64,000 bases of DNA from Heptranchias perlo (Eukaryota). The first letter of the stretch is position 1, and the number at the start of each line of letters is the position of its first letter. Position numbers and translations under genes: made by a program. The stretch lies in contig NW_027139969.1 of NCBI RefSeq assembly GCF_035084215.1, positions 1 through 64,000 on the forward strand. Direction: 5' to 3'. Shown in pieces: positions 6,070 to 64,000 of this stretch. The notes beneath the pieces were generated by a model. That model saw only the letters and a list, made by a program, of their open reading frames with translations. It was not told the origin of the DNA and ran no database searches.

Positions 6070-6192
6070 CCTGTCGAACCCCTGGTCTTCCAGTCGTCTG
6101 CCAAGGGCTTCTCCGATTCCCGCCAAGCACCGGACCGATTTCTCCCCCATGGGCTCTGCCACGAAATCCCGGTGTTTCTGCGATGTCGTCAT
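6070..6192 (-). CDS. BANF1: Barrier-to-autointegration factor 1, first coding exon
   Basis: [41 protein letters not shown]|gtaggt, closely matching human BAF 1-41; head-to-head with EIF1AD as in human. Confidence 0.96.
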
Positions 6193-18289: not shown

Positions 18290-18745
18290 CCCTCAACCCC
18301 ATCAACCAGGATAAATCAGTCTGCCCGATCACTACCCGAAACATTCACTCCCTTCACCACCGGAGCACTGTGGCTGCAGCGTGCACCATCCACAGGATGC
18401 ACTGCAGCAACTCGCCAAGGCTTCTTCGACAGCACCTCCCAAACCAGTGACCTCCACCACCTAGAAGGACAAGGGCAGCAGGCACATGGGAACAACACCA
18501 CCTGCACGTTCCCCTCCAAGTCACACACCATCCCGACTTGGAAATATATCGGCCGTTCCTTCATCATCGCTGGGTCCAAATCCTGGCACTCCCTTCCTAA
18601 CAGCACTGTGGGAGAACCTTCACCACACGGACTGCAGCGGTTCAAGAAGGCAGCTCACCACCACCTTCTCAAGGGGCAGTTAGGGATGGGCAATAAATGC
18701 CGGCCTCGCCAGCGACGCCCACATCCCAAGAATGAATATAACAAA
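18290..18745 (+). mobile_element. LINE 3' fragment (second family)
   Basis: NIHSLHHRSTVAAACTIHRMHCSNSPRLLRQHLPN, SKSWHSLP, then stem-loop tail. Confidence 0.82.
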
Positions 18746-21778: not shown

Positions 21779-22614
21779 CAGCACGGGTTAGATACAGAGT
21801 AAAGCTCCCTCCCTCTACACTGTCCCTATCAAACACTCCCAGGGCAGGTACAGCACGGGTTAGATACAGAGTGAAGCTCCCTCTACACTGTCCCATCAAA
21901 CACTCCCAGGGCAGGTACAGGGTTAGATACAGAGTAAAGCTCCCTCCACACTGTCCCATCAAACACTCCCAGGGCAGGTACAGGGTTAGATACAGAGTAA
22001 AGCTCCCTCCACACTGTCCCATCAAACACTCCCAGGGCAGGTACAGGGTTAGATACAGAGTAAAGCTCACTCTACACTGTCCCATCAAACACTCCCAGGG
22101 CAGGTACAGGGTTAGATACAGAGTAAAGCTCCCTCCACACTGTCCCATCAAACACTCCCAGGGCAGGTACAGGGTTAGATACAGAGTAAAGCTCCCTCCA
22201 CACTGTCCCATCAAACACTCCCAGGGCAGGTACAGGGTTAGATACAGAGTAAAGCTCCCTCCACACTGTCCCATCAAACACTCCCAGGGCAGGTACAGTG
22301 TTAGATACAGAGTAAAGCTCCCTCCACACTGTCCCATCAAACACTCCCAGGGCAGGTACAGGGTTAGATACAGAGTAAAGCTCCCTCCACACTGTCCCAT
22401 CAAACACTCCCGGGGCAGGTACAGGGTTAGATACAGAGTAAAGCTCCCTCTACACTGTCCCATCAAACACTCCCAGGGCAGGTACAGCACGGGTTAGATA
22501 CAGAGTAAAGCTCCCTCCACACTGTCCCATCAAACACTCCCGGGGCAGGTACAGGGTTAGATACAGAGTAAAGCTCCCTCTACACTGTCCCATCAAACAC
22601 TCCCGGGGCAGGTA
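21779..22614 (+). repeat. 62-bp (67-bp variant) minisatellite
   Basis: CAGGGCAGGTACAGGGTTAGATACAGAGTAAAGCTCCCTCYACACTGTCCCATCAAACACTCC-type unit, about 13 copies. Confidence 0.95.
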
Positions 22615-22634: not shown

Positions 22635-22928
22635 GATGGAATACTCACTCTCCACTTGCCTGGACTGGTGCCACCACAACAACACTCAAGAAGCCCAACA
22701 CCACCTGGAGCAGAGCAGTTCACTCCATAAGAGCAGCAGTGTTGTGGGAACACCATTACCTGTAAGTTCCCCTCCAACTGACACATTACCCCTACTTGGA
22801 AATATATCGGCTGTTCCTTCATCGACACTGGGACAAAATCCTGGAACTCCCCATCAACACTGTGGGAGCACCTTGGCCACACGGACTGCAGCGGTTCAAG
22901 GGGATGGCCCAACATCACCACCTTCGCA
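22635..22928 (+). mobile_element. Degenerate LINE 3' fragment (second family) leading into the 38-bp array
   Basis: GTGATGGAATACTC...CAAAATCCTGGAACTCC...CGGACTGCAGCGGTTCAAG, homologous to 50298-50826. Confidence 0.75.
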
Positions 22929-24475
22929 ATTAATGCCGGCCTCGCCAGCGACCGGCAGGGGGGCAATTAATGCCGGCCTCGCCAGCGACCGGCAGGGGGG
23001 GCAATTAATGCCGGCCTCGCCAGCGACCGGCAGGGGGGGCAATTAATGCCGGCCTCGCCAGCGACCGGCAGGGGGGGCAATTAATGCCGGCCTCGCCAGC
23101 GACCGGCAGGGGGGGCAATTAATGCCGGCCTCGCCAGCGACCGGCAGGGGGGGCAATTAATGCCGGCCTCGCCAGCGACCGGCAGGGGGGGGCAATTAAT
23201 GCCGGCCTCGCCAGCGACCGGCAGGGGGGGCAATTAATGCCGGCCTCGCCAGCGACCGGCAGGGGGGGCAATTAATGCCGGCCTCGCCAGCGACCGGCAG
23301 GGGGGGCAATTAATGCCGGCCTCGCCAGCGACCGGCAGGGGGGGCAATTAATGCCGGCCTCGCCAGCGACCGGCAGGGGGGGCAATTAATGCCGGCCTCG
23401 CCAGCGACCGGCAGGGGGGGCAATTAATGCCGGCCTCGCCAGCGACCGGCAGGGGGGGCAATTAATGCCGGCCTCGCCAGCGACCGGCAGGGGGGGCAAT
23501 TAATGCCGGCCTCGCCAGCGACCGGCAGGGGGGGCAATTAATGCCGGCCTCGCCAGCGACCGGCAGGGGGGGCAATTAATGCCGGCCTCGCCAGCGACCG
23601 GCAGGGGGGGCAATTAATGCCGGCCTCGCCAGCGACCGGCAGGGGGGGCAATTAATGCCGGCCTCGCCAGCGACCGGCAGGGGGGGCAATTAATGCCGGC
23701 CTCGCCAGCGACCGGCAGGGGGGGCAATTAATGCCGGCCTCGCCAGCGACCGGCAGGGGGGGCAATTAATGCCGGCCTCGCCAGCGACCGGCAGGGGGGG
23801 CAATTAATGCCGGCCTCGCCAGCGACCGGCAGGGGGGGCAATTAATGCCGGCCTCGCCAGCGACCGGCAGGGGGGGGCAATTAATGCCGGCCTCGCCAGC
23901 GACCGGCAGGGGGGGCAATTAATGCCGGCCTCGCCAGCGACCGGCAGGGGGGGCAATTAATGCCGGCCTCGCCAGCGACCGGCAGGGGGGGCAATTAATG
24001 CCGGCCTCGCCAGCGACCGGCAGGGGGGGCAATTAATGCCGGCCTCGCCAGCGACCGGCAGGGGGGGGGCAATTAATGCCGGCCTCGCCAGCGACCGGCA
24101 GGGGGGGCAATTAATGCCGGCCTCGCCAGCGACCGGCAGGGGGGGCAATTAATGCCGGCCTCGCCAGCGACCGGCAGGGGGGGCAATTAATGCCGGCCTC
24201 GCCAGCGACCGGCAGGGGGGGCAATTAATGCCGGCCTCGCCAGCGACCGGCAGGGGGGGCAATTAATGCCGGCCTCGCCAGCGACCGGCAGGGGGGGCAA
24301 TTAATGCCGGCCTCGCCAGCGACCGGCAGGGGGGGCAATTAATGCCGGCCTCGCCAGCGACCGGCAGGGGGGCAATTAATGCCGGCCTCGCCAGCGACCG
24401 GCAGGGGGGGCAATTAATGCCGGCCTCGCCAGCGACCGGCAGGGGGGGCAATTAATGCCGGCCTCGCCAGCGACG
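22926..24475 (+). repeat. 38-bp minisatellite derived from the LINE 3' tail
   Basis: GCAATTAATGCCGGCCTCGCCAGCGACCGGCAGGGGGG, about 40 copies. Confidence 0.95.
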
Positions 24476-29039: not shown

Positions 29040-29335
29040 GAATCTTCACAGCCTTTCGGCCCATCGTGCCTGTGCCGGCTCTTTGAAAGAACTATCCAAT
29101 TAATCCCCACCCCTGCACTCTCCTATTTAAGTATTTATTCCCTTTTGAAAGTTATTATTGAATCTGCTTCCACCGCCCTTTCAGGCAGTGAATTCCAGAT
29201 CAGAACAACTCGCTGCGTAAAAAACATTCTCCTCATCTCCCCCCTCTGGTTCTTTTGCCAATTATCTTAAATCTGTGTCCTCTGGTTACCGACCCTCCTC
29301 CCACTGGAAACAGTTGATATTTACTCTATTAAAAC
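29040..29335 (-). mobile_element. CR1 3' fragment
   Basis: Homologous to 20805-21245. Confidence 0.78.
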
Positions 29336-29588
29336 CCTGGTTGATTTCCCCCCTCTCCCTAACCCAGGGGTCATTGGGCAGTGATCAGGAGCAGGAACCC
29401 TGGCTGATTCCCCACTGCCCTAACAGCAGAGACCGGCTCAGAACGCAGACCCCTTTGTGCCTGTCTGACGAGGACTTCGCCCCCTGGGCGGCGGGCAGCT
29501 TTCGATCCCGTTGTACGAGGAGCAGTCTGGCACAGTCCCGAGCGAGCGGGACCAGGGTCGCAGCTGCAGGGGCACGTTCGGGACTTAC

Positions 29589-31782: not shown

Positions 31783-32167
31783 CCTCCGTACACTGCCACA
31801 AACACTCCCAGGGCAAGTACAGGGTTAGATACAGAGTAAAGCTCCCTCTACACTGTCCCATCAAACACTCCCAGGGCAGGTACAGGGTTAGATACAGAGT
31901 AAAGCTCCCTCTACACTGTCCCATCAAACACTCCCAGGGCAGGTACAGGGTTAGATACAGAGTAAAGCTCCCTCTACACTGTCCCGTCAAACACTCCCAG
32001 GGCAGGTACAGGGTTAGATACAGAGTAAAGCTCCCTCTACACTGTCCCATCAAACACTCCCAGGGCAGGTACAGGGTTAGATACAGAGTAAAGCTCCCTC
32101 TACACTGTCCCGTCAAACACTCCCAGGGCAGGTACAGGGTTAGATACAGAGTAAAACTCCCTCCACA
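31783..32167 (+). repeat. 62-bp minisatellite family array
   Basis: Same unit as 21779-22614, about 6 copies. Confidence 0.92.
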
Positions 32168-40067: not shown

Positions 40068-40657
40068 TAAACCGTGCTGTACCTGCCCTGGGAGTGTTTG
40101 ATGGGACAGTGTAGAGGGAGCTTTACTCTGTATCTAACAGTGTAGAGGGAGCTTTACTCTGTATCTAATCCTGTACCTGCCCTGGGAGTGTTTGACGGGA
40201 CAGTGTAGAGGGAGCTTTACTCTGTATCTAACCCTGTACCTGCCCTGGGAGTGTTTGATGGGAAAGTGTAGAGGGAGCTTCACTCTGTATCTAACCCGTG
40301 CTGTACCTGCCCTGGGAGTGTTTGACGGGACAGTGTAGAGGGAGCTTTACTCTGTATCTAACCCGTCGCTGTACTTGCCCTGGGAGTGTTTGACGGGACA
40401 GTGTAGAGGGAGCTTTACTCTGTATCTAACCCGTGCTGTACCTGCCCCGGGAGTGTTTGATGGGACAGTGTAGAGGGAGCTTTACTCCGTATCTAACCCT
40501 GTACCTGCCCTGGGAGTGTTTGACGGGACAGTGTAGAGGGAGCTTTACTCTGTATCTAACCCTGTACCTGCCTGGGAGTGTTTGACGGGACAGTGTAGAG
40601 GGAGCTTTACTCTGTATCTAACCCTGTACCTGCCCTGGGAGTGTTTGCTGGGACAGT
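40068..40657 (-). repeat. 62-bp minisatellite family array, reverse orientation
   Basis: Reverse complement of the 21779-22614 unit, about 9 copies. Confidence 0.92.
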
Positions 40658-41579
40658 GGGTGAGGTGACCACAATCAGCACACAGCAGATCCAGTGACAA
40701 GGCGACCCTTTGGACCCCTGACCATCAGAGCTTTCTCTTCCACGTAGCCAGAAGTGACACCAAACCGTGCTCCCTTAATGTCTGACTGACGACATGCACA
40801 CCTGGTGTGTTACTATGCCACACGGACAAAGTCCCTGATCTCTGCAGCTACAATGGGCCTCAGTGGCGATGGGTTAGGGAGGGGTCGGAGGGGGTTGAGA
40901 AATCAGCTGAGGCCCTTCAGCGCTGATTGCTAGCTGTTGAGCCCCGTTGGAAAGCAGATGCTGGCGTGAACAGGAGCGGGCCTGGTTGTGATGCCTCACG
41001 TGGTCGAATACCACCCCCCCCCACACACACACACCCCGAAGAGGTGAGCAAGGCTCTGGAGGGCAGCCGCGGAACTGTACCCCAGCCGGAGGTTGAGGAA
41101 AAGGGGTGGTGGTCGGGGGGGGTTTGGGTTCTGAGTTTCGATTAAAAAAAACTCGTCCAAATTTGCGATTTACTCATGAAATCTTTATTTCTGTGAATCT
41201 TTCTAAACAGAAGAGGGTAACACGGATATCAAACCATCAACAATACCTCTTGCGCGTGGGAGCCCAGAGCTCGAGGCAACAGGAAGAGAGGCTCGAGCCC
41301 ACACAGTATTGACCGAGGTCAGGCGGGGTGGGGTCTGGGCGGGCGATGGTGGGGGCAGTAAAGAGATCAGGCAATGGAAGGGACAGCCCAATGGGGAGCA
41401 CAAAACTGGTGAGTGCATGGGGTGAAGGTCAGACCTACTCTCTTGTCAGGGAGAGAACACATTTGTGGGGAGGATACCCAGGAAACAGGAGTATGGTCGT
41501 CTATGGCCAGTATGGGACTGATTCACAGGGATTAAGGCCCTCGGCTCCATCTCCAGTCTGTGCTGAGCTGATCACACCC

Positions 41580-42414: not shown

Positions 42415-43573
42415 TCACTCGCAGGTGATGTTGGGCTGGTGCAGGATCTGCAGATTCGGATGATCTCCTGCGGGCTCCTCCTGTGTACCACAAATAGCCG
42501 TCGGTAGGCGCACACGTCCCAGCGGTCGGTCTCGTTGATGCCGAAGCTGCGGAAGCCCCAGTGTCCCAGCGGCGCCACGCCCAGCCTCCGCAGGCACATG
42601 CCGGTGTAGACGTCGTCGATGGGGAAGAGGGGCACGGCCTGGGAGACCAGGGCCAGGCGGCGGGCCAGGTTTCCCCGAGTAGAGGACTCCTGCCCCCCCA
42701 GCGTAGGGCGGGTACAGGCCGCTGTAGAAGGCGCCGGGCACGTAGTACTTGAGGCCGGGGTCGCGGGAGGGCGCGGCCTCCAGATGGCGTCGCCCAGGAA
42801 GAGGTCGCGGCTGCGGCCGGGGTCCAGCGCCGCCACGTAGTCGAGCAGCCGCTCGGTGTTGACGAAGACGTCGTCGTCGCCCTTGAAGACGTAGCGCACG
42901 CCCGGGCAACGCCTGGCCAGCCAGGGCAGAAGAGGACCTCCTTCAGGGTCAGGTTGAAGAAAGTGTCGCGGAAGGCCCACTGGAGGAGGTCGCCAAAGTG
43001 CTGGCTCTCAAACTGCAGCAGCTGGCTCAGGTCGGCCTGGTAGTCCGCCGCCTCCTGCTGCCCCAACAGGAAGACCAGCCTGACCCCCAGGGGCCCCGGC
43101 GCTTGCCGCGGCCCACGCCCCCCCACGACTGCCGGATGGCCTGCCTCCGGGCGAAGCTGAAGGCCTCGCTCTTGACGGCCAGCAGCAGCAGGACTGGCCG
43201 GCCCCCCCTCCTCCCGGCACAGGCCCCCGGCGTCGAGCAGCAACGGGTAGGCCCGGCAGCCCCGGTAAACCAGGAAGTCCTTCATCTGCTGGGGCAGCAG
43301 GCCGAAGTCACAAAGCGGCCGGCCACCTCCGTGTCAGGCCGGCAGGAGCCCGGGTCCGAGGGGGGCGGGTCGGGCAGCTCGGCCGCCTGCTGCTCCAGCC
43401 GCTGCTGCTCCAGGTTCCAGAGTGACTGGAGGGGGCAGCCCGGCCTCCAGAAGCTCCCCGGGACCGCCAGCATCGTCCCGCTCTCCTCCCCATCCGCAGG
43501 GCCCAGTAGATCAGCAGGTTGGCAGGAGAGTGCAGGTCGCCCAAAGGAGGCACTTCTTCTGCGTCAGGTTCAT
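42415..43573 (-). CDS. GT31 beta-1,3-N-acetylglucosaminyltransferase (B3GNT2/4/8-like), single coding exon, multiply frameshifted here
   Basis: Across frames: MNLTQKKCLLW... membrane anchor, LPQQMKDFLVYRGCR, LLLAVKS...RRQAIRQSWG, LVFLLG, DLLQWAFRDTFFNLTLKE, YVFKGDDDVFVN, KYYVP, YPPYAGG, LFPIDDVYTGMCL, VHRRSPQE; acceptor ccccag just upstream (exon start 43584); AATAAA at 41184-41189; about 8 small indels. Confidence 0.88.
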
Positions 43574-43634
43574 AGCGTCAGCCCCTGGGGACAGAAAGAA
43601 AACAGCTTTAGAGGGGAACGGAGTTAGAATTCCA

Positions 43635-47249: not shown

Positions 47250-49063
47250 ACTGAACAGTGATCAGGAGCAGGAACCCTGGCTGATTCCTCTCCCTAACCC
47301 AGGGGTCAGTGGGCAGTGATCGGGAGCAGGAACCCTGGCTGATTTCCCCCCCTCTCTCCCTAACCCAGGGGTCAGTGGGCAGTGATCGGGAGAAGGAACC
47401 CTGGCTGATTCCCCCCTCTCTCCCTAACCCAGGGGGTCAGTGGGCAGTGATCGGAAGCAGGAACCCTGGCTGATTCCCCCTCTCTCCCTAACCCAGGGGG
47501 TCAGTGGGCAGTGATCGGGAGCAGGAACCCTGGCTGATTCCCCTCTCTCCCTAACCCAGGGGGTCAGTGGGCAGTGATCGGGAGCAGGAACCCTGGCTGA
47601 TTCCCCTCTCTCCCTAACCCAGGGGGTCAGTGGACAGTGATCAGGAGCAGGAACCCTGGCTGATTCCCCTCTCTCCCTAACCCAGGGGGTCAGTGGACAG
47701 TGATCGGGAGCAGGAACCCTGGCTGATTCCCCTCTCTCCCTAACCCAGGGGTCAGTGGGCAGTGATCGGGAGCAGGAACCCTGGCTGATTTCCCCCCTTC
47801 TCTCCCTAACCCAGGGGGTCAGTGGGCAGTGATCGGGAGCAGGAACCCTGGCTGATTCCCCCCTTTCTCCCTAACCCAGGGGTCAGTGGGCAGTGATCGG
47901 GAGCAGGAACCCTGGCTGATTTCCCCCCTTCTCTCCCTAACCCAGGGGGTCAGTGGGCAGTGATCGGGAGCAGGAACCCTGGCTGATTCCCCCCTCTCTC
48001 CCTAACCCAGGGGGTCAGTGGGCAGTGATCGGGAGCAGGAACCCTGGCTGATTCCCCCCTCTCTCCCTAACCCAGGGGTCAGTGGGCAGCGATCGGGAGC
48101 AGGAACCCTGGCTGATTTCCCCCGTCTCTCCCTAACCCAGGGATCAGTGGACAGTGATCGGGAGCAGGAACCCTGGCTGATTTCCCCCCTCTCTCCCTAA
48201 CCCAGGGGTCAGTGGGCAGTGATCGGGAGCAGGAACCCTGGCTGATTTCCCCCCCTCTCCCTAACCCAGGGGTCAGTGGACAGTGATCGGGAGCAGGAAC
48301 CCTGGCTGATTTCCCCCTCTCTCCCTAACCCAGGGGGTCAGTGGGCAGTGATCGGGAGCAGGAACCCTGGCTGATTTCCCCCCCTCTCTCCCTAACCCAG
48401 GGGGTCAGTGGGCAGTGATCGGGAGCAGGAACCCTGGCTGATTTCCCCCCCTCTCTCCCTAACCCAGGGGGTCAGTGGGCAGCGATCGGGAGCAGGAACC
48501 CTGGCTGATTTCCCCCCCTCTCTCCCTAACCCAGGGGGTCAGTGGGCAGCGATCGGGAGCAGGAACCCTGGCTGATTTCCCCCCCTCTCTCCCTAACCCA
48601 GGGGGTCAGTGGGCAGCGATCGGGAGCAGGAACCCTGGCTGATTTCCCCCCCTCTCTCCCTAACCCAGGGGGTCAGTGGACAGTGATCAGGAGCAGGAAC
48701 CCTGGCTGATTTCCCCCCCTCTCTCCCTAACCCAGGGGGTCAGTGGGCAGCGATCGGGAGCAGGAACCCTGGCTGATTTCCCCCCCTCTCTCCCTAACCC
48801 AGGGGGTCAGTGGGCAGCGATCGGGAGCAGGAACCCTGGCTGATTCCCCCCTCTCTCTAACCCAGGGGGTCAGTGGGCAGTGATCGGGAGCAGGAACCCT
48901 GGCTGATTTCCCCCCCTCTCTCCCTAACCCAGGGGGTCAGTGGGCAGCGATCGGGAGCAGGAACCCTGGCTGATTTCCCCCCTCTCTCCCTAACCCAGGG
49001 GGTCAGTGGGCAGCGATCGGGAGCAGGAACCCTGGCTGATTTCCCCCCCTCTCTCCCTAAACC
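47250..49063. repeat. About 65-bp minisatellite
   Basis: CCTAACCCAGGGGGTCAGTGGGCAGTGATCGGGAGCAGGAACCCTGGCTGATTTCCCCCCTCTCTC-type unit, roughly 27-28 copies. Confidence 0.95.
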
Positions 49064-49133
49064 AGGCTCCATCTTGACGTCGATGGGCAGAGAGGTTGGC
49101 AGTGCCATGCTGCAAACAGGCACGGATACTCAC

Positions 49134-49200
49134 AGCCTGAGCCGGCGAGTTCAGGCTCCGCAGGAGGATCAGAAGCCGGGGAGTTATAAGCAAGCGTTTA
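49134..49200 (-). other. Candidate non-coding first exon of the B3GNT-like gene
   Basis: Unique CpG-containing island between repeats, strong minus-strand donor gtgagtat (49126-49133), TTATAA/TTTAAA just upstream. Confidence 0.35.
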
Positions 49201-49356
49201 AATGAAGATTAGGAGAGTTAAGGGGGTCTTTGGGGGGCAACGAAAAGGCCTGAGCAACCTCCACCACCTGCCGCAGGCCGCCCGAGAGGCTGCCCATTGC
49301 GCCCCCTGGCGCACGGGAGGAGGAACTGCACGCGGAGGAGGACCTGCTGCTGCTCC

Positions 49357-49823
49357 CCGTGGCTCAGTGGGTCTCTCTCTCCCTCTCTCTCTCTCTCGCC
49401 TCTGAGTCGGAAGGTCGTGGGTTCGAGCCCCCACTCCAGAGACTCGAGCCCCGTAATCCAGGCCGACACTCCCCAGTGCCGGTGCTGAGGGAGTGCCGCG
49501 CTGTCGGAGGTGCCGTCTTTCGGGTGAGGCCCCTCGGGTGGACGTAAAAGGACCGCCTGCCGCTATTGGAAGAAGAGCAGGGGGGAGTTCTCCCCGGCGT
49601 CCTGGAGCCCAATATTTATCCCTCAACCAACATCACTAAAAAAAAAACCGGACGATCTGGTTATCATCACATTGCTGTTTGTGGGATCTTGCTGTGCGCA
49701 AATCGGCTGCTGCGTTTCCTACATCACAACAGTGACTACACTTCAAAAAGAAAAGTACTTCATTGGCTGTAAAGCTCTTTGGGACATCCTGAGGTGGTGA
49801 AAGGTGCTATATAAATGCAAGTT
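49357..49823 (+). mobile_element. DeuSINE, near full length
   Basis: TGGCTCAGTGG A box, GGTTCGAGCCC B box, Deu domain, L2 tail. Confidence 0.85.
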
Positions 49824-50297
49824 GCTCCTTTGGGATGTTAACACAATCTGTCCCCACAAGCTGTTTCTCTCCCCGATCACACATTTTAAAATGTTGATTT
49901 TTCTACAGTCTCAGCTATTTTTATTCCTCCTCTCTGGTTGTAAAAATCGAAGGAATGAGCAGCAAACTCACTGTAATGTAGAACAAAAAAAATAAATACG
50001 ATTTGCTCCCCTTTGTGGGCGAACCCCTTTGTGTTTCAATCGGCTCTGTTGTCTGGGCACACGTCAATCAATCTCTCCCCGAACACCTTCCCCCCCCCTC
50101 TGCTGATTGGGCACTTTGTAAGAATTCACACAATCTGCCCTCTCTCCACTACCCCCCCCTCCGCCATTACCCCACATTTTTAATGTTTGGTTCGTTTTAA
50201 TTTTATGTTGTACTAAAAACTGTACCCGGTCACTGAACTTTTGCCTATTTATTAGAACTCTTGTGTTTATTCCCCCCGCCGGCAATTAGACACAAAC

Positions 50298-50826
50298 ACA
50301 AAAGTGTGATGGAATACTCTCCACTTGCCTGGATGAGTGCAGCTCCAACAACACTCAAGAAGCTCGACACCATCCAGGACAAAGCAGCCCGCTCCATCGG
50401 CACCCCATCCACCACCCTAAACATTCACTCCCTTCACCACCGGCGCACTGTGGCTGCAGTGTGTACCATCCACAGGATGCACTGCAGCAACTCGCCAAGG
50501 CTTCTTCGACAGCACCTCCCAAACCCATGACCTCTACCACCTAGAAGGACAAGGGCAGCAGGCACATGGGAACAACACCACCTGCACGTTACCCTCCAAG
50601 TCACACACCATCCCGACTTGGAAATAAATCGCCGTTCCTTCATCGTCGCTGGGTCAAAATCCTGGAACTCCCTTCCTAACAGCACTGTGGGAGAACCTTC
50701 ACCACACGGACTGCAGCGGTTCAAGAAGGCGGCTCACCACCACCTTCTCATGGGGCAATTAGGGATGGGCAATAAATGCCGGCCTCGCCAGCGACGCCCA
50801 CATCCCATGAACGAATAAAAAAAAAA
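50298..50826 (+). mobile_element. LINE 3' fragment (second family, CR1/Jockey group)
   Basis: SVMEYSPLAWMSAAPTTLKKLDTIQDKAARSIG..., SKSWNSLPNS, stem-loop tail, poly(A). Confidence 0.88.
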
Positions 50827-51005
50827 CTGACCAGAGCAGGAATAAAGCTGAATTAAAAATCAAAGCATATTTCACTTTCAAACTGCAATTACTTTAGAGT
50901 CGGATTAAATCCTCCAGCTGAACCTTTAAAATTTATTCATCAGACACCCACAACAAAGGAATCCGGACTAAAATCGCCCTGGGAATAGAGATTTGTAAAT
51001 TCACA

Positions 51006-54000
51006 CCCCACTAATGACCCATGTACCCCTCTAATGGCCCATGTACCCCTCTAATGGCCCATGTAACCTACTAATGACCCATGTACCTCTCTAATGACCC
51101 ATGTACCCATCTAATGGCCCATGTACCTCTCCAATGACCCATATACCCCTCTAATGACCCATATACCCCTCTAATGACCCATGTACCCCTCTGATGAGCC
51201 ATGTACCCCTCTAATGACCCATGTACCCCTCTAATGGCCCATGTACCCCACTAATGACCCATGTGCCCCTCTAATGGCCCATGTACCCCTCTAATGGCCC
51301 ATGTACCCCTCTAACGGCCCATGTACCCCATTAATGACCCATGTACCCCTCTAATGACCCATGTACCCCTCTAATGACCCATGAACCCCACTAATGGCCC
51401 ATGTACCCCTCTAATGGCCCATGTACCCCACTAATGACCCATGTACCCCTCTAATGACCCATGTACCCCTCTAATGACCCGTGTACCACTCTAATGGCCC
51501 ATGTGGCCCTCTAATGGCCCATGTACCCCTCTAATGACCCATGAACCCAACTAATGACCCATGTACCCCTCTAATGACCCATGTACCCCTCTAATGGCCC
51601 ATGTACCCCTCTAATGGCACATGTACCCCACTAAAGACCCATGTACCCCTCTAATGACCCATGTACCTCTCTAATGGCCCATGTACCCCTCTAATGACCC
51701 ATGTACCCCTCTAATGACCCATGTACCCCACTAATGACCCATGCACCCCTCTAATGGCCCATGTACCTCTCCGATGACACATATACCCCTCTAATGACCC
51801 TTGTACCCCTCTGATGAGCCATGTACCCCTCTAATGGCCCATGTACCCCTCTAATGGCCCATGTACCCCTCTAATGGCCCATGTACCCCTCTAATGGCCC
51901 ATGTACCCCACTAATGGCCCATGTACCTCTCTAATGACCCATGTACCCCACTAATGACCCATGTACCCCTCTAATGGCCCATGTACCCCACTAATGACCC
52001 ATGTGCCCCACCAATGACCCATGTACCCCTCTAATGGCCCACGTACCCCACTAATGACCCATCTACCCCACTAATGACCCATCTACCCCACTAATGGCCC
52101 ATGTTCCCCACTAATGACCCATGTACCCCACTAATGACCCATGTACCCCTCTAATGACCCATGTACCCCTCTAATGACCCATGAACCCCACTAATGGCCC
52201 ATGTACCCCTCTAATGGCCCATGTACCCCACTAATGACCCATGTACCCCTCTAATGACCCATGTACCCCTCTAATGACCCGTGTACCACTCTAATGGCCA
52301 ATGTGGCCCTCTAATGGCCCATGTACCCCTCTAATGACCCATGAACCCCACTAATGACCCATGTACCCCTCTAATGACCCATGTACCCCTCCAATGGCCC
52401 ATGTACCCCTCTAATGGCCCATGTACCCCACTAAAGACCCATGTACCCCTCTAATGACCCATGTACCCCTCTAATGACCCATGAACCCCAATAATGACCC
52501 ATGTACCCCTCTAATGGCCCATGTACCCCACTAATGACCCATGTACCCCTCTAATGACCCATGTACCCCTCTAATGACCCATGTACCCCTCTAATGACCC
52601 GTGTACCACTCTAATGGCCCATGTGGCCCTCTAATGGCCCATGTACCCCACTAATGACCCATGAACCCCACTAATGACCCATGTACCCCTCTAATGACCC
52701 ATGTACCCTCTAATGGCCCATGTACGCCTCTAATGGCCCATGTACCCCTCTAATGGCCCATGTACCCCACTAAAGACCCATGTACCCCTCTAATGGCCCA
52801 TGTACCCCACTAATGACCCATGTACCCCTCTAATGACCTATGTACCCCACTAATGACCCATGTACCCCACTAATGACCCATGTACCTCTCTAATGACCCA
52901 TGTACCCCTCTAATGACCCATGAACGCCACTAATGACCCATGTACCCCACTAATGGCCCGTGTACCCCACTAATGACCCGTGTACCCCTCTAATGACCCG
53001 TGTACCACTCTAATGGCCCATGTGGCCCTCTAATGGCCCAAGTACCCCTCTAATGACCCATGAACCCCACTAATGACCCATGTACCCCTCTAATGACCCA
53101 TGTACCCCTCTAATGACCCATGTGGCCCTCTAATGACCCATGTACCCCTCTAATGACCCATGAACCCCACTAATGACCCATGTACCCCTCTAATGGCCCA
53201 TGATCCCCTCTAATGACCCATGTACCCCTCTAATGACCCATGTACCCCTCTAATGGCCCATGTACCCCACTAATGACCCATGTACCCCTCTAATGACCCA
53301 TGTGGCCCTCTAATGACCCATGTACCCCTCTAATGACCCATGAACCCCACTAATGACCCATGTACCTCTCTAATGACCCATGTACCCCACTAATGACCCG
53401 TGTACCCCACTAATGACCCATGTACCCCTCTAATGACACATGTACCCCTCTAATGACCCATGTACCCCTCTAATGACCCATGTATCCCTCTAATGGCCCA
53501 TGTACCCCTCTAATGGCCCATGTACCCCTCTAATGACCCATGTGGCCCTCTAATGGCCCATGTACCCCACTAATGACCCATGTACCTCTCTAATGACCCA
53601 TGTACCCCTCTAATGACCCATGTACCCCACTAATGACCCATGTACCCTTCTAATGACCCATGTATCCCACTAATGACCCATGTACCCCTCTAATGACCCA
53701 TGTACCCTCTAATGGCCCATGTACGCCTCTAATGGCCCATGTACCCCTCTAATGGCCCATGTACCCCACTAAAGACCCATGTACCCCTCTAATGGCCCAT
53801 GTACCCCACTAATGACCCATGTACCCCTCTAATGACCTATGTACCCCACTAATGACCCATGTACCCCACTAATGACCCATGTACCTCTCTAATGACCCAT
53901 GTACCCCTCTAATGTCCCATGAACGCCACTAATGATCCATGTACCCCACTAATGGCCCGTGTACCCCACTAATGACCCGTGTACCCCTCTAATGACCCGT

Positions 54001-57000
54001 GTACCACTCTAATGGCCCATGTGGCCCTCTAATGGCCCAAGTACCCCTCTAATGACCCATGAACCCCACTAATGACCCATGTACCCCTCTAATGACCCAT
54101 GTACCCCTCTAATGACCCATGTGGCCCTCTAATGACCCATGTACCCCTCTAATGACCCATGAACCCCACTAATGACCCATGTACCCCTCTAATGGCCCAT
54201 GATCCCCTCTAATGACCCATGTACCCCTCTAATGACCCATGTACCCCTCTAATGGCCCATGTACCCCACTAATGACCCATGTACCCCACTAATGACCCGT
54301 GTACCCCACTAATGACCCATGTACCCCTCTAATGACACATGTACCCCTCTAATGACCCATGTACCCCTCTAATGACCCATGTATCCCTCTAATGGCCCAT
54401 GTACCCCTCTAATGGCCCATGTACCCCTCTAATGGCCCATGTACCTCTCTAATGACCCATGTACCCCACTAATGACCCGTGTACCCCACTAATGACCCAT
54501 GTACCCCTCTAATGACACATGTACCCCTCTAATGACCCATGTACCCCTCTAATGACCCATGTATCCCTCTAATGGCCCATGTACCCCTCTAATGGCCCAT
54601 GTACCCCTCTAATGACCCATGTGGCCCTCTAATGGCCCATGTACCCCACTAATGACCCATGTACCTCTCTAATGACCCATGTACCCCTCTAATGACCCAT
54701 GTACACCTCTAATGACCCATGTACCCCTCTAATGACCCATGTACCCCACTAATGACCCATGTACCCTTCTAATGACCCATGTATCCCTCTAATGACCCAT
54801 GTGGCCCACTAATGACCCATGTACCCCTCTAATGGCCCATGTACCCCTCTAATGGCCCATGTACCCCTCTATTGGCCCATGTACCCCTCTAATGGGGACC
54901 ATGTACCCCTCTAATGACCCATGTACCCCTCCAATGGCCCACGTATCCCTCTAATGGCCCATGTACCCCTCTAATGGCCCATGTACCCCACTAATGACCC
55001 ATCTACCCCAGTAATGGCCCATCCACCCCACTAATGGCCCATGTACCCCTCTAATGGCCCATGTACCACACTAATGACCCATGTACCCCACTAATGACCC
55101 ATCTTCCCCAGTAATGGCCCATCCACCCCACTAATGGCCTATGTACCCCTCGAATGGCCCATGTACCCCACTAATGACCCATGTACCCCACTAATGGCCC
55201 ATGTACCCCACTAATGACCCATGTACCCCTCTAATGGCCCATGTACCCCACTAATGACCCATGTGCCCCTCTAATGGCCCATGTACCCCTCTAATGGCCC
55301 ATGTACCCCTCTAATGGCCAATGTACCCCTCTAATGAGCCATGTACCCCTCTAATGGCCCATGTACCCCTCTAATGGCCCATGTACCCCACTAATGACCC
55401 ATGTACCCCTCTAATGACCCATGTACCCCTCTAATGACCCATGAACCCCACTAATGGCCCATGTACCCCTCTAATGGCCCATGTACCCCACTAATGACCC
55501 ATGTACCCCTCTAATGACCCATGTACCCCTCTAATGACCCGTGTACCAATCTAATGGCCCATGTACCCCTCTAATGGCCCATGTACCCCACTAATGACCC
55601 ATCTACCCCAGTAATGGCCCATCCACCCCACTAATGGCCCATGTACCCCTCTAATGGCCCATGTACCCCACTAATGACCCATGTACCCCACTAATGACCC
55701 ATCTACCCCAGTAATGGCCCATCCACCCCACTAATGGCCCATGTACCCCTCGAATGGCCCATGTACCCCACTAATGACCCATGTACCCCACTAATGGCCC
55801 ATGTACCCCACTAATAGCCCATGTACCCCACTAATGACCCATGTACACCTCTAATGACCCATGTACCCCACTAATGGCCCATGTACCCCACTAATGGCCC
55901 ATGTACCCCACTAATGACCCATGTACCCCACTAATGGCCCATGTATCCCACTAATGGCCCATCTACCCTACTAATGACCCATCTACCCCACCAATGACCC
56001 ATGTACCCCTCTAATGGCCCATGTACCCCACTAATGACCCATCTACCCCACTAATGACCCATCTACCCCACTAATGGCCCATGTTCCCCACTAATGACCC
56101 ATGTACCCCTCTAATGACCCATGTACCCCTCTAATGACCCATGAACACCACTAATGGCCCATGTACCACTCTAATGGCCTATGTACCCCACTAATGACCC
56201 ATGTACCCCTCTAATGAACCATGTACCCCTCTAATGACCCGTGTACCCCTCTAATGGCCCATGTACCCCTCTAATGGCCCATGTACCCCTCTAATGGCCC
56301 ATGTACCCCACTAAAGACCCATGTACCCCTCTAATGACCCATGTACCCCTCTAATGACCCATGTACCCCACTAATGACCCATGTACCCCTCTAATGGCCC
56401 ATGTACCCAACTAATGACCCATGTACCCCTCTAATGACCCATGTACCCCACTAATGACCCATGTACCCCACTAATGACCCATGTACCTCTCTAATGACCC
56501 ATGTACCCCTCTAATGACCCATGAACGCCACTAATGACCCATGTAACCCTCTAATGGCCCATGCACCCCACTAATGACCCGTGTACCCCTCTAATGACCC
56601 GTGTACCACTCTAATGGCCCATGTGGCCCTCTAATGGCCCATGTACCCCTCTAATGACCCATGAACCCCACTAATGACCCATGTACCCCTCTAATGACCC
56701 ATGTACCCCTCCAATGGCCCATGTACCCCTCCAATGGCCCATGTACCCCTCTAATGGCCCATGTACCCCACTAAAGAACCATGTACCCCTCTAATGACCC
56801 ATGTACCCCTCTAATGACCCATGAACCCCACTAATGACCCATGTACCCCTCTAATGGCCCATGTACCCCACTAATGACCCGTGTACCCCTCTAATGACCC
56901 GTGTACCACTCTAATGGCCCATGTGGCCCTCTAATGGCCCAAGTACCCCTCTAATGACCCATGAACCCCACTAATGACCCATGTACCCCTCTAATGACCC

Positions 57001-60000
57001 ATGTACCCCTCTAATGACCCATGTGGCCCTCTAATGACCCATGTACCCCTCTAATGACCCATGAACCCCACTAATGACCCATGTACCCCTCTAATGGCCC
57101 ATGATCCCCTCTAATGACCCATGTACCCCTCTAATGACCCATGTACCCCTCTAATGACCCATGTGGCCCACTAATGACCCATGTACCCCTCTAATGGCCC
57201 ATGTACCCCTCTAATGGCCCATGTACCCCTCTATTGGCCCATGTACCCCTCTAATGGGGACCATGTACCCCTCTAATGACCCATGTACCCCTCCAATGGC
57301 CCACGTATCCCTCTAATGACCCATGTACCCCTCTAATGGCCCATGTACCCCACTAATGACCCATCTACCCCAGTAATGGCCCATCCACCCCACTAATGGC
57401 CCATGTACCCCTCTAATGGCCCATGTACCCCACTAATGACCCATGTACCCCACTAATGACCCATCTACCCCAGTAATGGCCCATCCACCCCACTAATGGC
57501 CCATGTACCCCTCGAATGGCCCATGTACCCCACTAATGACCCATGTACCCCACTAATGGCCCATGTACCCCACTAATGACCCATGTACCCCTCTAATGGC
57601 CCATGTACCCCACTAATGACCCATGTGCCCCTCTAATGGCCCATGTACCCCTCTAATGGCCCATGTACCCCTCTAATGGCCAATGTACCCCTCTAATGAG
57701 CCATGTACCCCTCTAATGGCCCATGTACCCCTCTAATGGCCCATGTACCCCACTAATGACCCATGTACCCCTCTAATGACCCATGTACCCCTCTAATGAC
57801 CCATGAACCCCACTAATGGCCCATGTACCCCTCTAATGGCCCATGTACCCCACTAATGACCCATGTACCCCTCTAATGACCCATGTACCCCTCTAATGAC
57901 CCGTGTACCACTCTAATGGCCCATGTACCCCTCTAATGGCCCATGTACCCCACTAATGACCCATCCACCCCAGTAATGGCCCATCCACCCCACTAATGGC
58001 CCATGTACCCCTCTAATGGCCCATGTACCCCACTAATGACCCATGTACCCCACTAATGACCCATCTACCCCAGTAATGGCCCATCCACCCCACTAATGGC
58101 CCATGTACCCCTCTAATGACCCATGTACCCCACTAATGACCCATGTACCCCACTAATGACCCATGTACCTCTCTAATGACCCATGTACCCCTCTAATGAC
58201 CCATGAACGCCACTAATGACCCATGTAACCCTCTAATGGCCCATGTACCCCACTAATGACCCGTGTACCCCTCTAATGACCCGTGTACCACTCTAATGGC
58301 CCATGTGGCCCTCTAATGGCCCATGTACCCCTCTAATGACCCATGAACCCCACTAATGACCCATGTACCCCTCTAATGACCCATGTACCCCTCCAATGGC
58401 CCATGTACCCCTCCAATGGCCCATGTACCCCTCTAATGGCCCATGTACCCCACTAAAGAACCATGTACCCCTCTAATGACCCATGTACCCCTCTAATGAC
58501 CCATGAACCCCACTAATGACCCATGTACCCCTCTAATGGCCCATGTACCCCACTAATGACCCGTGTACCCCTCTAATGACCCGTGTACCACTCTAATGGC
58601 CCATGTGGCCCTCTAATGGCCCAAGTACCCCTCTAATGACCCATGAACCCCACTAATGACCCATGTACCCCTCTAATGACCCATGTACCCCTCTAATGAC
58701 CCATGTGGCCCTCTAATGACCCATGTACCCCTCTAATGACCCATGAACCCCACTAATGACCCATGTACCCCTCTAATGGCCCATGATCCCCTCTAATGAC
58801 CCATGTACCCCTCTAATGACCCATGTACCCCTCTAATGACCCATGTGGCCCTCTAATGGCCCAAGTACCCCTCTAATGACCCATGAACCCCACTAATGAC
58901 CCATGTACCCCTCTAATGACCCATGTACCCCTCTAATGACCCATGTGGCCCTCTAATGACCCATGTACCCCTCTAATGACCCATGAACCCCACTAATGAC
59001 CCATGTACCCCTCTAATGGCCCATGATCCCCTCTAATGACCCATGTACCCCTCTAATGACCCATGTACCCCTCTAATGACCCATGTGGCCCTCTAATGGC
59101 CCATGTACCCCACTAATGACACATGTACCCCTCTAATGACCCATGTGGCCCTCTAATGACCCATGTACCCCTCTAATGACCCATGAACCCCACTAATGAC
59201 CCATGTACCTCTCTAATGACCCATGTACCCCACTAATGACCTGTGTACCCCACTAATGACCCATGTACCCCTCTAATGACACATGTACCCCTCTAATGAC
59301 CCATGAACCCCTCTAATGGCCCATGTACCCCTCTAATGGCCCATGTACCCCTCTAATGGCCCATGTACCCCTCTAATGACCCATGTGGCCCTCTAATGGC
59401 CCATGTACCCCACTAATGACCCATGTACCTCTCTAATGACCCATGTACCCCTCTAATGACCCATGTACCCCTCTAATGACCCATGTACCCCTCTAATGAC
59501 CCATGTACCCCACTAATGACCCATGTACCCTTCTAATGACCCATGTACCCCTCTAATGACGCATGTGGCCCACTAATGACCCATGTACCCCTCTAATGGC
59601 CCATGTACCCCTCTAATGGCCCATGTACCCCTCTATTGGCCCATGTACCCCTCTAATGGGGACCATGTACCCCTCTAATGACCCATGTACCCCTCCAATG
59701 GCCCACGTATCCCTCTAATGGCCCATGTACCCCTCTAATGGCCCATGTACCCCACTAATGACCCATCTACCCCAGTAATGGCCCATCCACCCCACTAATG
59801 GCCCATGTACCCCTCTAATGGCCCATGTACCCCACTAATGACCCATGTACCCCACTAATGACCCATCTACCCCAGTAATGGCCCATCCACCCCACTAATG
59901 GCCCATGTACCCCTCGAATGGCCCATGTACCCCACTAATGACCCATGTACCCCACTAATGGCCCATGTACCCCACTAATGACCCATGTACCCCTCTAATG

Positions 60001-61815
60001 GCCCATGTACCCCACTAATGACCCATGTGCCCCTCTAATGGCCCATGTACCCCTCTAATGGCCCATGTACCCCTCTAATGGCCAATGTACCCCTCTAATG
60101 AGCCATGTACCCCTCTAATGGCCCATGTACCCCTCTAATGGCCCATGTACCCCACTAATGACCCACGTACCCCTCTAATGACCCATGTACCCCTCTAATG
60201 ACCCATGAACCCCACTAATGGCCCATGTACCCCTCTAATGGCCCATGTACCCCACTAATGACCCATGTACCCCTCTAATGACCCATGTACCCCTCTAATG
60301 ACCCGTGTACCACTCTAATGGCCCATGTACCCCTCTAATGGCCCATGTACCCCACTAATGACCCATCTACCCCAGTAATGGCCCATCCACCCCACTAATG
60401 GCCCATGTACCCCTCTAATGGCCCATGTACCCCACTAATGACCCATGTACCCCACTAATGACCCATCTACCCCAGTAATGGCCCATCCACCCCACTAATG
60501 GCCCATGTACCCCTCGAATGGCCCATGTACCCCACTAATGACCCATGTACCCCACTAATGGCCCATGTACCCCACTAATAGCCCATGTACCCCACTAATG
60601 ACCCATGTACACCTCTAATGACCCATGTACCCCACTAATGGCCCATGTACCCCACTAATGACCCATGTACCCCACTAATGGCCCATGTATCCCACTAATG
60701 GCCCATGTATCCCACTAATGCCCCATCTACCCTACTAATGACCCATCTACCCCACCAATGACCCATGTACCCCTCTAATGGCCCATGTACCCCACTAATG
60801 ACCCATCTACCCCACTAATGACCCATCTACCCCACTAATGGCCCATGTTCCCCACTAATGACCCATGTACCCCTCTAATGACCCATGTACCCCTCTAATG
60901 ACCCATGAACACCACTAATGGCCCATGTACCACTCTAATGGCCCATGTGGCCCTCTAATGGCCCATGTACCCCTCTAATGACCCATGTACCCCTCTAATG
61001 GCCCATGTACCCCTCTAATGGCCCATGTACCCCACTAAAGACCCATGTACCCCTCTAATGACCCATGTACCCCTCTAATGACCCATGTACCCCTCTAATG
61101 GCCCATGTACCCCACTAATGACCCATGTACCCCTCTAATGACCCATGTACCCCTCTAATGACCCGTGTACCACTCTAATGGCCCATGTGGCCCTCTAATG
61201 GCCCATGTACCCCTCTAATGACCCATGAACCCCACTAATGACCCATGTACCCCTCTAATGACCCATGTACCCCTCTAATGACCCATGTACCCCTCTAATG
61301 GCCCATGTACCCCTCTAATGACACATGTACCCCTCTAATGACCCATGAACCCCTCTAATGGCCCATGTACCCCTCTAATGGCCCATGTACCCCTCTAATG
61401 ACCCATGTACCCCTCTAATGACCCATGGGCCCTCTAATGACCCATGTACCCCTCTAATGACCCATGTACCCCACTAATGACCCATGTACCCCTCTAATGG
61501 CCCATGATCCCCTCTAATGGCCCATGATCCTCTCTAATGACCCATGTACCCCTCTAATGACCCATGTACCCCTCTAATGACCCATGTACCCCTCTAATGA
61601 CCCATGTGGCCCTCTAATGACCCATGTGGCCCTCTAATGGCCCATGTACCCCACTAATGACCCATGTACCCCTCTAATGACCCATGTGGCCCTCTAATGA
61701 CCCATGTACCCCTCTAATGACCCATGTACCCCACTAATGACCCATGTACCCCACTAATGACCCATCTACCCCTCTAATGGCCCATGTTCCCCACTAAAGG
61801 AGACCATGTACCCAA
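51006..61815 (+). repeat. 20-bp satellite array (about 10.8 kb, about 540 units)
   Basis: CTAATGRCCCATGTACCCCW with recurring variant strings. Confidence 0.98.
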
Positions 61816-61894
61816 AGCTCAGCCCCGGGGGGCCCTTTAAGAGGGTGAGGCGGTCCCTTTAACAAGAGCCCACGATGTAACAAATGGAGCGGCG

Positions 61895-61950
61895 CCGTTG
61901 ATTGGTTGCGAGCGAGTAGCGGTTGCCCCGGTAACCGCGGCCCTGGCAAC
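61895..61950 (+). promoter_or_regulatory. Promoter with RFX X-box and inverted CCAAT box
   Basis: GTTGCCCCGGTAAC (61922-61935) fits the X-box consensus GTNRCC(N0-3)RGYAAC; second half-site CTGGCAAC ends 61950; ATTGG at 61901; CpG-rich. Confidence 0.7.
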
Positions 61951-61983
61951 GCCGGGTCGGTGAGTTGCAGTTTCCCGCGCAGC

Positions 61984-62202
61984 ATGTGGCCGCCACACAG
62001 ACAGGCGGTGTTCAGGAACCACTGCGTGAAGCCCGGCCCCAGGACCAGCCCCTGCCCCAGCCCCAGCCCCAGCCCCTGTCCCGGCCCCGGACCCGGACCC
62101 CACCCCCGGGGCAGGGCACGGCTCCGCGGGACCGCCTCCGAGGCATCCCTGCAGGCAGAGCTGATGCGGTATCTCGCCTCCATGTTCGACCTTCAATGCC
62201 AG
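61984..62202 (+). CDS. First coding exon of a probable ciliary/testis gene, possibly TSGA10IP/FAM161 family
   Basis: agcATG MWPPHRQAVFRNHCVKPGP...SLQAELMRYLASMFDLQCQ|gtgagt (219 nt, phase 0) behind the X-box promoter. The family call rests only on recalled resemblance to FAM161 N-termini and on TSGA10IP neighbouring SART1 in human. Confidence 0.55.
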
Positions 62203-62384
62203 GTGAGTTACACTGAAGCCCCACGGCTGGATTTGATCACAAAGAAACCAACCTCCCCCAACCCCCCACCCCCCACCACACACACCCCCCAAACCACCCC
62301 CACACACACACCCCCATCCAGCCAGGGAGCAGGCACCAGCAAGGCAGGAAACAGAGGAGAGGACACTGGGTGGCTGGGCTTTGG

Positions 62385-62860
62385 GTACATGGTCCCCATT
62401 AGAGAGGTACATGGGCCATTAGAGAGGTACATGGGCCATTAGTGGGGTACATGGGCCATTAGTGGGGTACATGGGTCATTAGTGGGGTACATGGGTCATT
62501 AGAGGGGTACATGGGTCATTAGTGGGGTACATGGGTCATTAGAGGGGTAGATGGGTCATTAGAGGGGTACATGGGTTATTAGAGGGGTTCATGGGTCATT
62601 AGTGGGGTACATGGGCCATTAGCGGGGTACATGGGCCATTAGCGGGGTACTTGGGTCATTAGAGGGGTACATGGGCCATTAGAGGGGTTCATGGGTCATT
62701 AGAGGGGTACATGGGTCATTAGAGGGGTACATGGGTCATTAGAGGGGTACATGGGTCATTAGCGGGGTACATGGGCCATTAGAGGGGTACATGGGTCATT
62801 GGAGGGGTACATGGCCCCCATTAGCGGGTTACTTGGGCCATTCATGGGGTACATGGTCCC
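62385..62860 (-). repeat. Same 20-bp satellite, inverted
   Basis: AGWGGGGTACATGGGYCATT, about 23 copies. Confidence 0.95.
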
Positions 62861-62861
62861 T

Positions 62862-64000
62862 GTCAGTGGGATATTACCTCGTTAGTGGGATATTACCGTC
62901 AGTGGGATATTACCGTCAGTGGAATATTACCCCGTTAGGGGGATATTACTGTCAGTGGGATATTACCTCGTTAGTGGGATATTACTGTTCGTGGGATATT
63001 ACCCCGTTAGTGGGATATTACCTCGTTAGTGGGATATTACCGTCAGTGGGATATTACCCCGTTAGTGGGATATTACTGTTCGTGGGATATTACCCCGTTA
63101 GTGGGATATTACTGTTCGTGGGATATTACCCCGTTAGTGGGATATTACTGTTCGTGGGATATTACCGCTAGTGGGATATTGCCCCGTTAATGGGATCTTA
63201 TTGTTAGTGGGATATTACTGTTAGTGGGATATTACCCCCTAAGTGGGATATTACCGTTGGTGGGATATTACCCCATTAGTGGGATATTGCCCCGTTAATC
63301 GGATCTTACTGTTAGTGGGATATTACCGTTAGTGGGATATTGCCCCATTAGTGGGATATTACCGTGAGTGGGATATTACCGTTAGTGGGATATTGCCCCA
63401 TTAGTGGGATATTACTGTTAGTGGGATATTGCCCCATTAGTGGGATATTACCCCATTAGTGGGATATTACTGTTAGTGGGATATTGCCCCATTAGTGGGA
63501 TATTGCCCCGTTAGTGGGATATTACTGTTAGTGGGATATTATTTTAGTGGGATATTATTTTAGTGAGATATTACCGTCAGTGGGATATTGCCCCGTTAGT
63601 GGGATATTATTTTAGTGGGATATTACCCCATTAGTGGGATATTATTTTAGTGGGATATTACCCCGTTAGTGGGATATTATTTTAGTGGGATATTACCCCA
63701 TTAGTGGGATATTATTTTAGTGGGATATTACCGTCAGTGGGATATTACCCCGTTAGTGGGATATTATTTTAGTGGGATATTACCCCATTAGTGGGATATT
63801 ATTTTAGTGGGATATTACCCCGTTAGTGGGATATTATTTTAGTGGGATATTACCCCATTAGTGGGATATTATTTTAGTGGGATATTACCCCGTTAGTGGG
63901 ATATTATTTTAGTGGGATATTACCCCGTTAGTGGGATATTATTTTAGTGGGATATTACCGTCAGTGGGATATTACCCCGTTAGTGGGATATTACCCCGTT
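62862..64000. repeat. 16-20-bp satellite (TTAGTGGGATATTACCCCG), running off the window
   Basis: Direct inspection; late units alternate ...ATTATTTTAG and ...ATTACCCCRTTAG. Confidence 0.93.

Follow-up and report, generated by a model that had tools for sequence, protein, structure and literature searches.

The DNA under study, referred to here as the window, comprises the first 64,000 nucleotides of contig NW_027139969.1 of the shark Heptranchias perlo. Pfam analysis of exons from this window, in which four of the four queried pieces were matched, indicates the presence of two BAF genes, a gene with an eIF-1A domain, and SART-1. The first coding exons of the BAF (barrier-to-autointegration factor) genes are placed in tandem on the minus strand (1223-1348 and 6070-6192), suggestive of a local duplication, and the pair stands head to head with the eIF-1A-domain gene, the promoter region of which is near 10200-10500. 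Further to the right, protein matches identify a B3GNT2-like coding exon on the minus strand (42418-43585; acceptor 12 nt before the ATG at 43573), whose best matches are found in Heterodontus (77%) and Hypanus (76%). Compared with its shark orthologs, this exon runs through three frames, which may reflect either assembly errors by an N gap or a decaying gene. A moderately CpG-rich stretch on the same strand (49135-49360) that carries a GTGAGT donor is a candidate non-coding first exon of the B3GNT2-like gene.

Of the window, 46% consists of tandem repeats (34% within positions 1-51000), and the window as a whole contains 21 arrays of at least 150 bp. Small shark chromosomes are described as gene-dense, with a high GC content and an abundance of simple tandem repeats (PMC10620051); since the repeat density found here is like that of small elasmobranch chromosomes, arrays located beside promoters are ordinary in this region. 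Four arrays belong to a 63-bp repeat family, two on the plus strand (21785-22614 and 31799-32167) and two on the minus strand (40137-40658 and 1-62), so that long-range inverted satellite pairs are also present around SART1. The unit of a 99% homogeneous 38-bp array (22926-24474) is similar to the 3' end of a dispersed repeat (18690-18720 and 50770-50800), and this array may have been seeded from a retroposon-like fragment. A 67-bp array is found at 47288-49066, and a single dispersed copy of its unit lies in a SART1 intron (29335-29410). Rfam yielded no match in the region 49000-64000.

The special feature of this locus is that one repeat family occurs in both orientations and with a common end. 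The left arm, a 20-bp minisatellite or satellite array on the plus strand, extends over 10.8 kb (51005-61824; about 540 units) and ends in the shared terminus; its consensus is CCCATGTACCCC(T/A)CTAATG(A/G), and TRF places it at 51005-61797 with 539.5 copies and 89% matches. The right arm, delimited by TRF, unit splitting, and alignment, is an inverted 20-bp array on the minus strand (62372 to about 62860) of about 24 units and 0.49 kb (TRF: 62397-62856, 22.9 copies). It would be intronic, its outer end is degenerate, and the asymmetry of the arms is strong (about 540 versus about 24 units). Contiguous and co-oriented with the right arm follows a minus-strand array of 16-19-bp units (62865-64000; TRF reports a 19-bp array at 62865-63996) that continues past the end of the window and is probably a relative of the 20-bp family. 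Of five 19-bp variants tested, two have a 10-nt core in common with the 20-mer (0 and 2 of 2000 shuffles were as good) and two others an 8-nt core (13 and 20 of 2000 shuffles), while the core of the fifth is at chance level (253 of 2000).

The inner ends of the two arms correspond to each other closely. Between 61794-61824 and the reverse complement of 62372-62402, 28 of 31 letters agree, and local alignment outward from the inner ends gives 39 matches in 45. Inward of 61824 and 62372 the identity drops to chance (6/15), and within the spacer neither direct comparison nor alignment revealed any continuation of the inverted match. A 20-nt terminus pattern, allowing up to three mismatches, has two occurrences in the 64 kb, exactly at both arm ends, where 0.01 would be expected. 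The arms end in an 11-bp non-satellite tail, AAAGCTCAGCC on the left (61814-61824, plus strand) and AAAGCCCAGCC on the right (62372-62382, minus strand), which sequence comparison found to be identical at 10 of the 11 positions (p about 5e-5, or 5e-4 when 11 offsets are allowed). The initial annotation had described inverted satellite arms with a defined common inner terminus, and these data bear it out. Short palindromes (CCCCGGGG, GGGCCC, and CCCTTTAAGAGGG) are present at the left junction (61821-61848). Microhomology at the junctions was not found beyond a C run; a C run also borders the outer end of the left arm near 51005, possibly as microhomology and possibly by chance. In both arms the G-rich strand faces outward (G4Hunter-type plus-strand means of -1.04 and +0.96), so that divergent transcripts would both contain one and the same repeat strand and would not anneal to one another. 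A role in the formation of circular RNA was set aside, because such a role presupposes that the left arm is transcribed from the plus strand, and no gene that would do this was seen.

The arms enclose a unique spacer of 547 bp (61825-62371) that, judged by its motifs, likely constitutes a promoter: a CpG-island-like segment followed on the plus strand by one or more putative first exons and the start of an intron. It has a GC content of 66% with 34 CpG dinucleotides, and the CpG observed/expected ratio is 0.74 over its first 386 bp (61825-62210). Apart from low-complexity C runs, the rest of the window contains nothing similar to it. Motif matching places a CCAAT box on the minus strand (61899-61907), using a pattern that has nine matches in the whole window, and an RFX X-box, GTTGCCCCGGTAAC, at 61922-61935. 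The latter conforms to RTNRCC N1-3 RGYAAC, the strict pattern of the literature (PMC2375033), which appeared in 59 of 5000 shuffled spacers and has its only other match in the window within the right arm (62841). Functional X-boxes are reported to lie mostly within 500 bp of the start site (PMC5838959), and regulation of the spacer by RFX is thus far a putative one, suggested by the motif. The gene served by this promoter would extend to the right. Going by the human gene order, TSGA10IP is a candidate for it.

A plus-strand open frame of 73 codons starts with the ATG at 61984 and runs to the donor CAG/GTGAGT at 62202/62203 (61984-62202). An alternative donor, GTGAGT at 61960-61965 on the plus strand, would close a short non-coding first exon, and in combination with an acceptor-like site read off the sequence near 62153 it makes an alternative exon layout possible in which the Pro/Ser-rich part is intronic. 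Among 183 candidates (proteins of 129-2000 aa), no relative of the 73-aa frame was found at E<=10; Pfam gave one weak low-complexity match, the Atlas no usable match, the cluster representatives three matches that we judged spurious (two Pro/Ser repeats and one repetitive protein), and the PDB low-complexity matches only. When 54 aa of the neighbouring B3GNT2-like exon were used as a control against a collection that includes shark proteins, 314 relatives were retrieved with elasmobranchs on top, although this piece belongs to a conserved catalytic region and is hence a lenient control. Since no credible relative was found in databases containing shark proteins, the coding status of the frame is unsupported. 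Of the spacer contents listed by the initial annotation, the CCAAT box, the X-box, the ATG frame, and the donor motifs are all present, but the ATG exon found no relative that would back its coding status.

Splitting the left array into units and aligning its blocks revealed a higher-order structure over 54876-61802 (plus strand), with blocks of about 2.1-2.4 kb that each contain a 22-bp unit variant. This variant occurs at 54876, 57238, and 59640 as well as at both inner ends, and the terminal 22-mer at 61781 is located close to the next expected block boundary. Successive blocks are identical at 94% and 96% of the aligned bases, and rare unit variants reappear in step across the left-arm blocks. 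The higher-order repeat proposed previously is therefore real, and so is the presence of a 22-bp-like terminal unit at both inner ends; compared with the 22-bp marker, the terminal 22-mer differs by one letter on the right and by four on the left. Two 19-bp unit variants at 52698 and 53697, 999 bp apart, suggest a second higher-order period of about 1 kb in the outer left array.

We compared the units of the two arms on the basis of 533 of the 540 left units and the 20 regular units among the about 24 on the right. The arm consensus is identical at 20 of 20 positions, and the major polymorphisms occur at similar frequencies (T at unit position 13 in 338/533 left and 12/20 right units; A at position 20 in 325/533 and 12/20). 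The mean unit distance is 2.20 within the left arm, 1.77 within the right arm, and 1.98 between them; net divergence per unit averages 0.02 between the right arm and 26 left blocks and 0.05 among the left blocks. Fifteen of the 20 right units are present verbatim on the left, and five of the eight minor alleles of the right arm are among the nine commonest of the left (p about 0.001, with a threshold set post hoc). G at position 13 is private to the right arm (3/20 units versus 0/533), and GG at positions 8-9 is a variant specific to the left arm. The order of the right units is not collinear with any left segment: the best fit has 29 mismatches in 400 positions, and 485 of 500 shuffles were equal or better. 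Fitted in register, the arms are about 91% identical over 400 bp (35 mismatches) with a longest perfect match of 73 bp, a fit that is not significant (55/500 shuffles), and runs of two to four units common to both arms were not found to be enriched. A single undifferentiated unit pool lacking collinear order suggests that the array was already varied when a piece of it was duplicated and that the unit order has been scrambled since. Turnover or unit-scale exchange from arm to arm may have caused this scrambling, two processes that would look alike here.

To assess the assembly, we compared four of 23 candidate sequencing runs. The spacer occurs in four sequencing runs of one sample, from which the assembly may derive. 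Run X1, read whole, yielded 18 matching contigs, with 8 of 21 matching pieces listed; it is of low depth, probably represents the very sample behind the assembly, and was searched with a record filter applied and through contigs that drop rare variants. One X1 contig of 696 nt bridges both junctions with more than 31 letters on each side and a single differing letter; its pieces (61760-62031, 62111-62256, and 62327-62440) are exactly collinear in their coordinates, with two low-complexity stretches skipped in between. Among the matches listed, there were neither joints nor loose ends at either junction, and no other X1 contig led from the satellite and tail into a different flank. Three loose ends (61797, 62396, and 62397) represent ordinary satellite, the longest of which fits the left array within two letters. 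The bins over the tails (61806-61828 and 62358-62380) show solely the depth of the 696-nt contig, 4.74, and those over the satellite reach 127 and 803. The summed satellite depth, equivalent to about 170 single copies, can be explained by the about 560 local units and is also compatible with further arrays. No matching contig was present in the 57-79% that were read of runs X17, X19, and X20, which derive from other organisms, a result that is no proof of absence; metagenome scans with the terminus and with a satellite dimer gave 0 matches.

These data demonstrate that both junctions are real in the X1 sample, and they speak against the mis-assembly considered in the initial annotation. The structure could in principle have arisen from a fold-back chimeric read or a mis-join, and the N gaps of the window together with the frame changes of the B3GNT2-like exon do show that the assembly is locally imperfect. 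But the contig that bridges both junctions was built independently, and the about 9% divergence of the arms and the variant private to the right arm are unlike a chimeric read, so that we regard an artefact as extremely unlikely. The length of the left array is taken as assembled. The orientation of the spacer is that of the assembly in one contig from one sample, and crossovers more than about 65-70 bp into the arms would be invisible in it.

The inverted duplication of a minisatellite around a likely promoter is thus real, and it probably is a one-off. We consider it likely that the structure represents an inverted duplication at a single locus followed by array expansion, and not a mobile element. 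The tail match far beyond chance, the identical consensus, and the matching variant frequencies all point in this direction; an inverted duplication had been one of the possibilities raised beforehand, and the tail and unit pool common to both arms support it. According to this explanation, one end of a pre-existing 20-bp minisatellite and 11 bp of its unique flank would have been copied in reverse across the promoter to a site about 550 bp away, probably via template switching during replication or break repair, while the promoter itself stayed put. Template switching is known to yield templated inverted insertions in yeast (PMC11724301). The upstream copy would then have grown to 10.8 kb, like many of the local arrays, presumably by slippage and by duplication of blocks such as those seen in it. 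That the unit pool is still common to both arms may be owed to a fairly recent origin or to exchange between them, occasional and without crossover. The data do not show a recent block copy, since the right unit order is not collinear, and that order together with equal frequencies in an arm of 24 units calls for ongoing exchange or chance. The duplicated end slightly more probably came from the right side, because the 19-bp units have their core, orientation, and contact in common with the 20-bp arm. We infer this order of events from a single sequence. The resulting structure is most likely a neutral by-product.

The initial annotation had also raised a foldback-like structure. In a foldback or MITE-like DNA transposon, the arms would be terminal inverted repeats carrying tandem repeats within them, and the spacer would be the middle domain of the element or captured DNA; alternatively, a small element could be present in two copies placed head to head. 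The layout does resemble that of Tetris from Drosophila virilis, a foldback element whose long inverted arms contain tandem repeats and have seeded satellite arrays (PMC4079207). As in the Tetris, FB, and Galileo foldbacks described there, long tandem-repeat inverted arms with a non-repetitive inner edge surround an unrelated middle and are associated with satellite expansion (PMC4079207), although the inner domain common to the arms is 11 bp here, identical at 10 positions. Unlike those elements, the locus has, as far as the window and the X1 contigs show, no outer flanking domain in common, 8-10-bp target site duplication, or other copy, and its middle resembles a host promoter, apparently a resident one with an intron leaving it. 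The outer termini are unmatched within the window: the left outer end is unique DNA, the right one is another array, and the left side has no counterpart of the 19-bp array. In agreement with the earlier failure to see an outer target site duplication, none of 5-11 bp was found when the left outer end (50998-51011) was compared with the left inner end (61820-61831) or the right outer end (62855-62884), a search confined to the window, with the far end of the 19-bp array lying beyond 64000. Dispersed copies of the terminus would be expected of such an element, but both matches in the window are these two arms, and the X1 contig matches listed contain no further terminus and no extra tail depth in this one low-depth, filtered run. 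A transposon origin is accordingly quite improbable.

Inverted repeats that flank a putative promoter, recognized as such by its motifs, also have the layout of an invertible segment. If the arms recombined often, inversion of the spacer would be recurrent or polymorphic, and in the inverted state the promoter and exon would no longer point toward the right-hand gene. The in-register identity and the 73-bp perfect match would allow this, the undifferentiated unit pool and its scrambled order suggest exchange between the arms, and a single-strand fold contains 375 arm-to-arm pairs, a number obtained without a shuffle control. On the other hand, the X1 contig is unbranched, in the assembled orientation, and free of joints or hybrid termini, which rules out no more than frequent crossovers, in this one sample, at up to about 65-70 bp from the spacer, and flipping would probably disable the right-hand gene. 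Spacer length and divergence would, moreover, be expected to lower recombination in double-stranded DNA sharply. Lengthening the spacer of an inverted Alu pair in yeast from 12 to 20 bp is reported to reduce recombination about 40-fold, and divergence to reduce it further, while spaced, diverged repeats still fold back in single-stranded DNA (PMC10164571). By these data, the extrusion of a cruciform suggested by the initial annotation is unlikely with a 547-bp spacer and arms of about 91% identity. Frequent inversion thus appears unlikely overall, and rare inversion of the spacer is possible; as a substrate for inversion or for hairpins in single-stranded DNA the structure has a possible but weak claim.

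Two further proposals involve the B3GNT2-like gene, the one that a flipped promoter would face. The arms might turn the X-box promoter and first exon into an invertible switch that serves the right-hand gene in the assembled orientation and the B3GNT2-like gene in the other. The B3GNT2-like coding exon lies 18 kb leftward and needs an upstream non-coding exon; after a flip, the donors would face its acceptor, and unit-scale gene conversion would keep the arms recombinable and account for the shared, scrambled unit pool. The candidate first exon near 49135 is closer to the B3GNT2-like gene, which argues against the need for a switch, and we rate the switch as very improbable. Among seven orthologous B3GNT2-like proteins, no N-terminal piece matching the spacer was found. 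Inversions with staggered breaks leave inverted duplications at their breakpoints, and one past inversion of the spacer could have done so at both its ends. The left B3GNT2-like exon does require a minus-strand upstream non-coding exon, but the nearer candidate, with its donor near 49135, lies in CpG-richer DNA, and on the right the 19-bp and 20-bp arrays, which adjoin, have one orientation, and are probably related, are simplest to understand if that side was never broken. A past inversion is consequently a long shot as well.

Inverted duplication at a single locus, the explanation that we prefer, has partial parallels in known systems. Like the satellite macro-dyads of Tribolium (PMC13081366), the locus consists of one family in two opposed and unequal sub-arrays (10.8 kb and 0.49 kb, with the short arm at the low end), in which the units are diverged where the orientation changes, and is adjoined by a minor array of a related kind. 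The Tribolium macro-dyads are described from thousands of conserved (peri)centromeric sites with no gene (PMC13081366), whereas the present structure occupies one gene-dense site with a 547-bp promoter-like spacer and is not at a conserved, many-times-repeated (peri)centromeric inversion site. In templated inverted insertions, local DNA is likewise copied in reverse near its source with no transposase; those described in yeast are fresh repair products (PMC11724301), whereas the event seen here is old and microhomology is not demonstrable. With inverted Alu pairs (PMC10164571), the locus has in common arms of a few hundred bp, about 90% identity, and the potential to form single-strand hairpins, but its arms, as tandem arrays, are free to pair at any register. 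Narrow phrase searches of the open-access literature found no published case of a minisatellite in inverted orientation around a promoter.

Should long reads reveal the spacer in both orientations, the locus would represent a vertebrate promoter switch driven by repeats, a finding that specialists would not expect. On the likeliest reading, the locus is a clean case of a minisatellite that seeded a second, inverted array across a promoter. With its identical consensus, equal variant frequencies, and scrambled unit order, this locus offers a small natural experiment on whether tandem arrays of opposite orientation become homogenised by one another.
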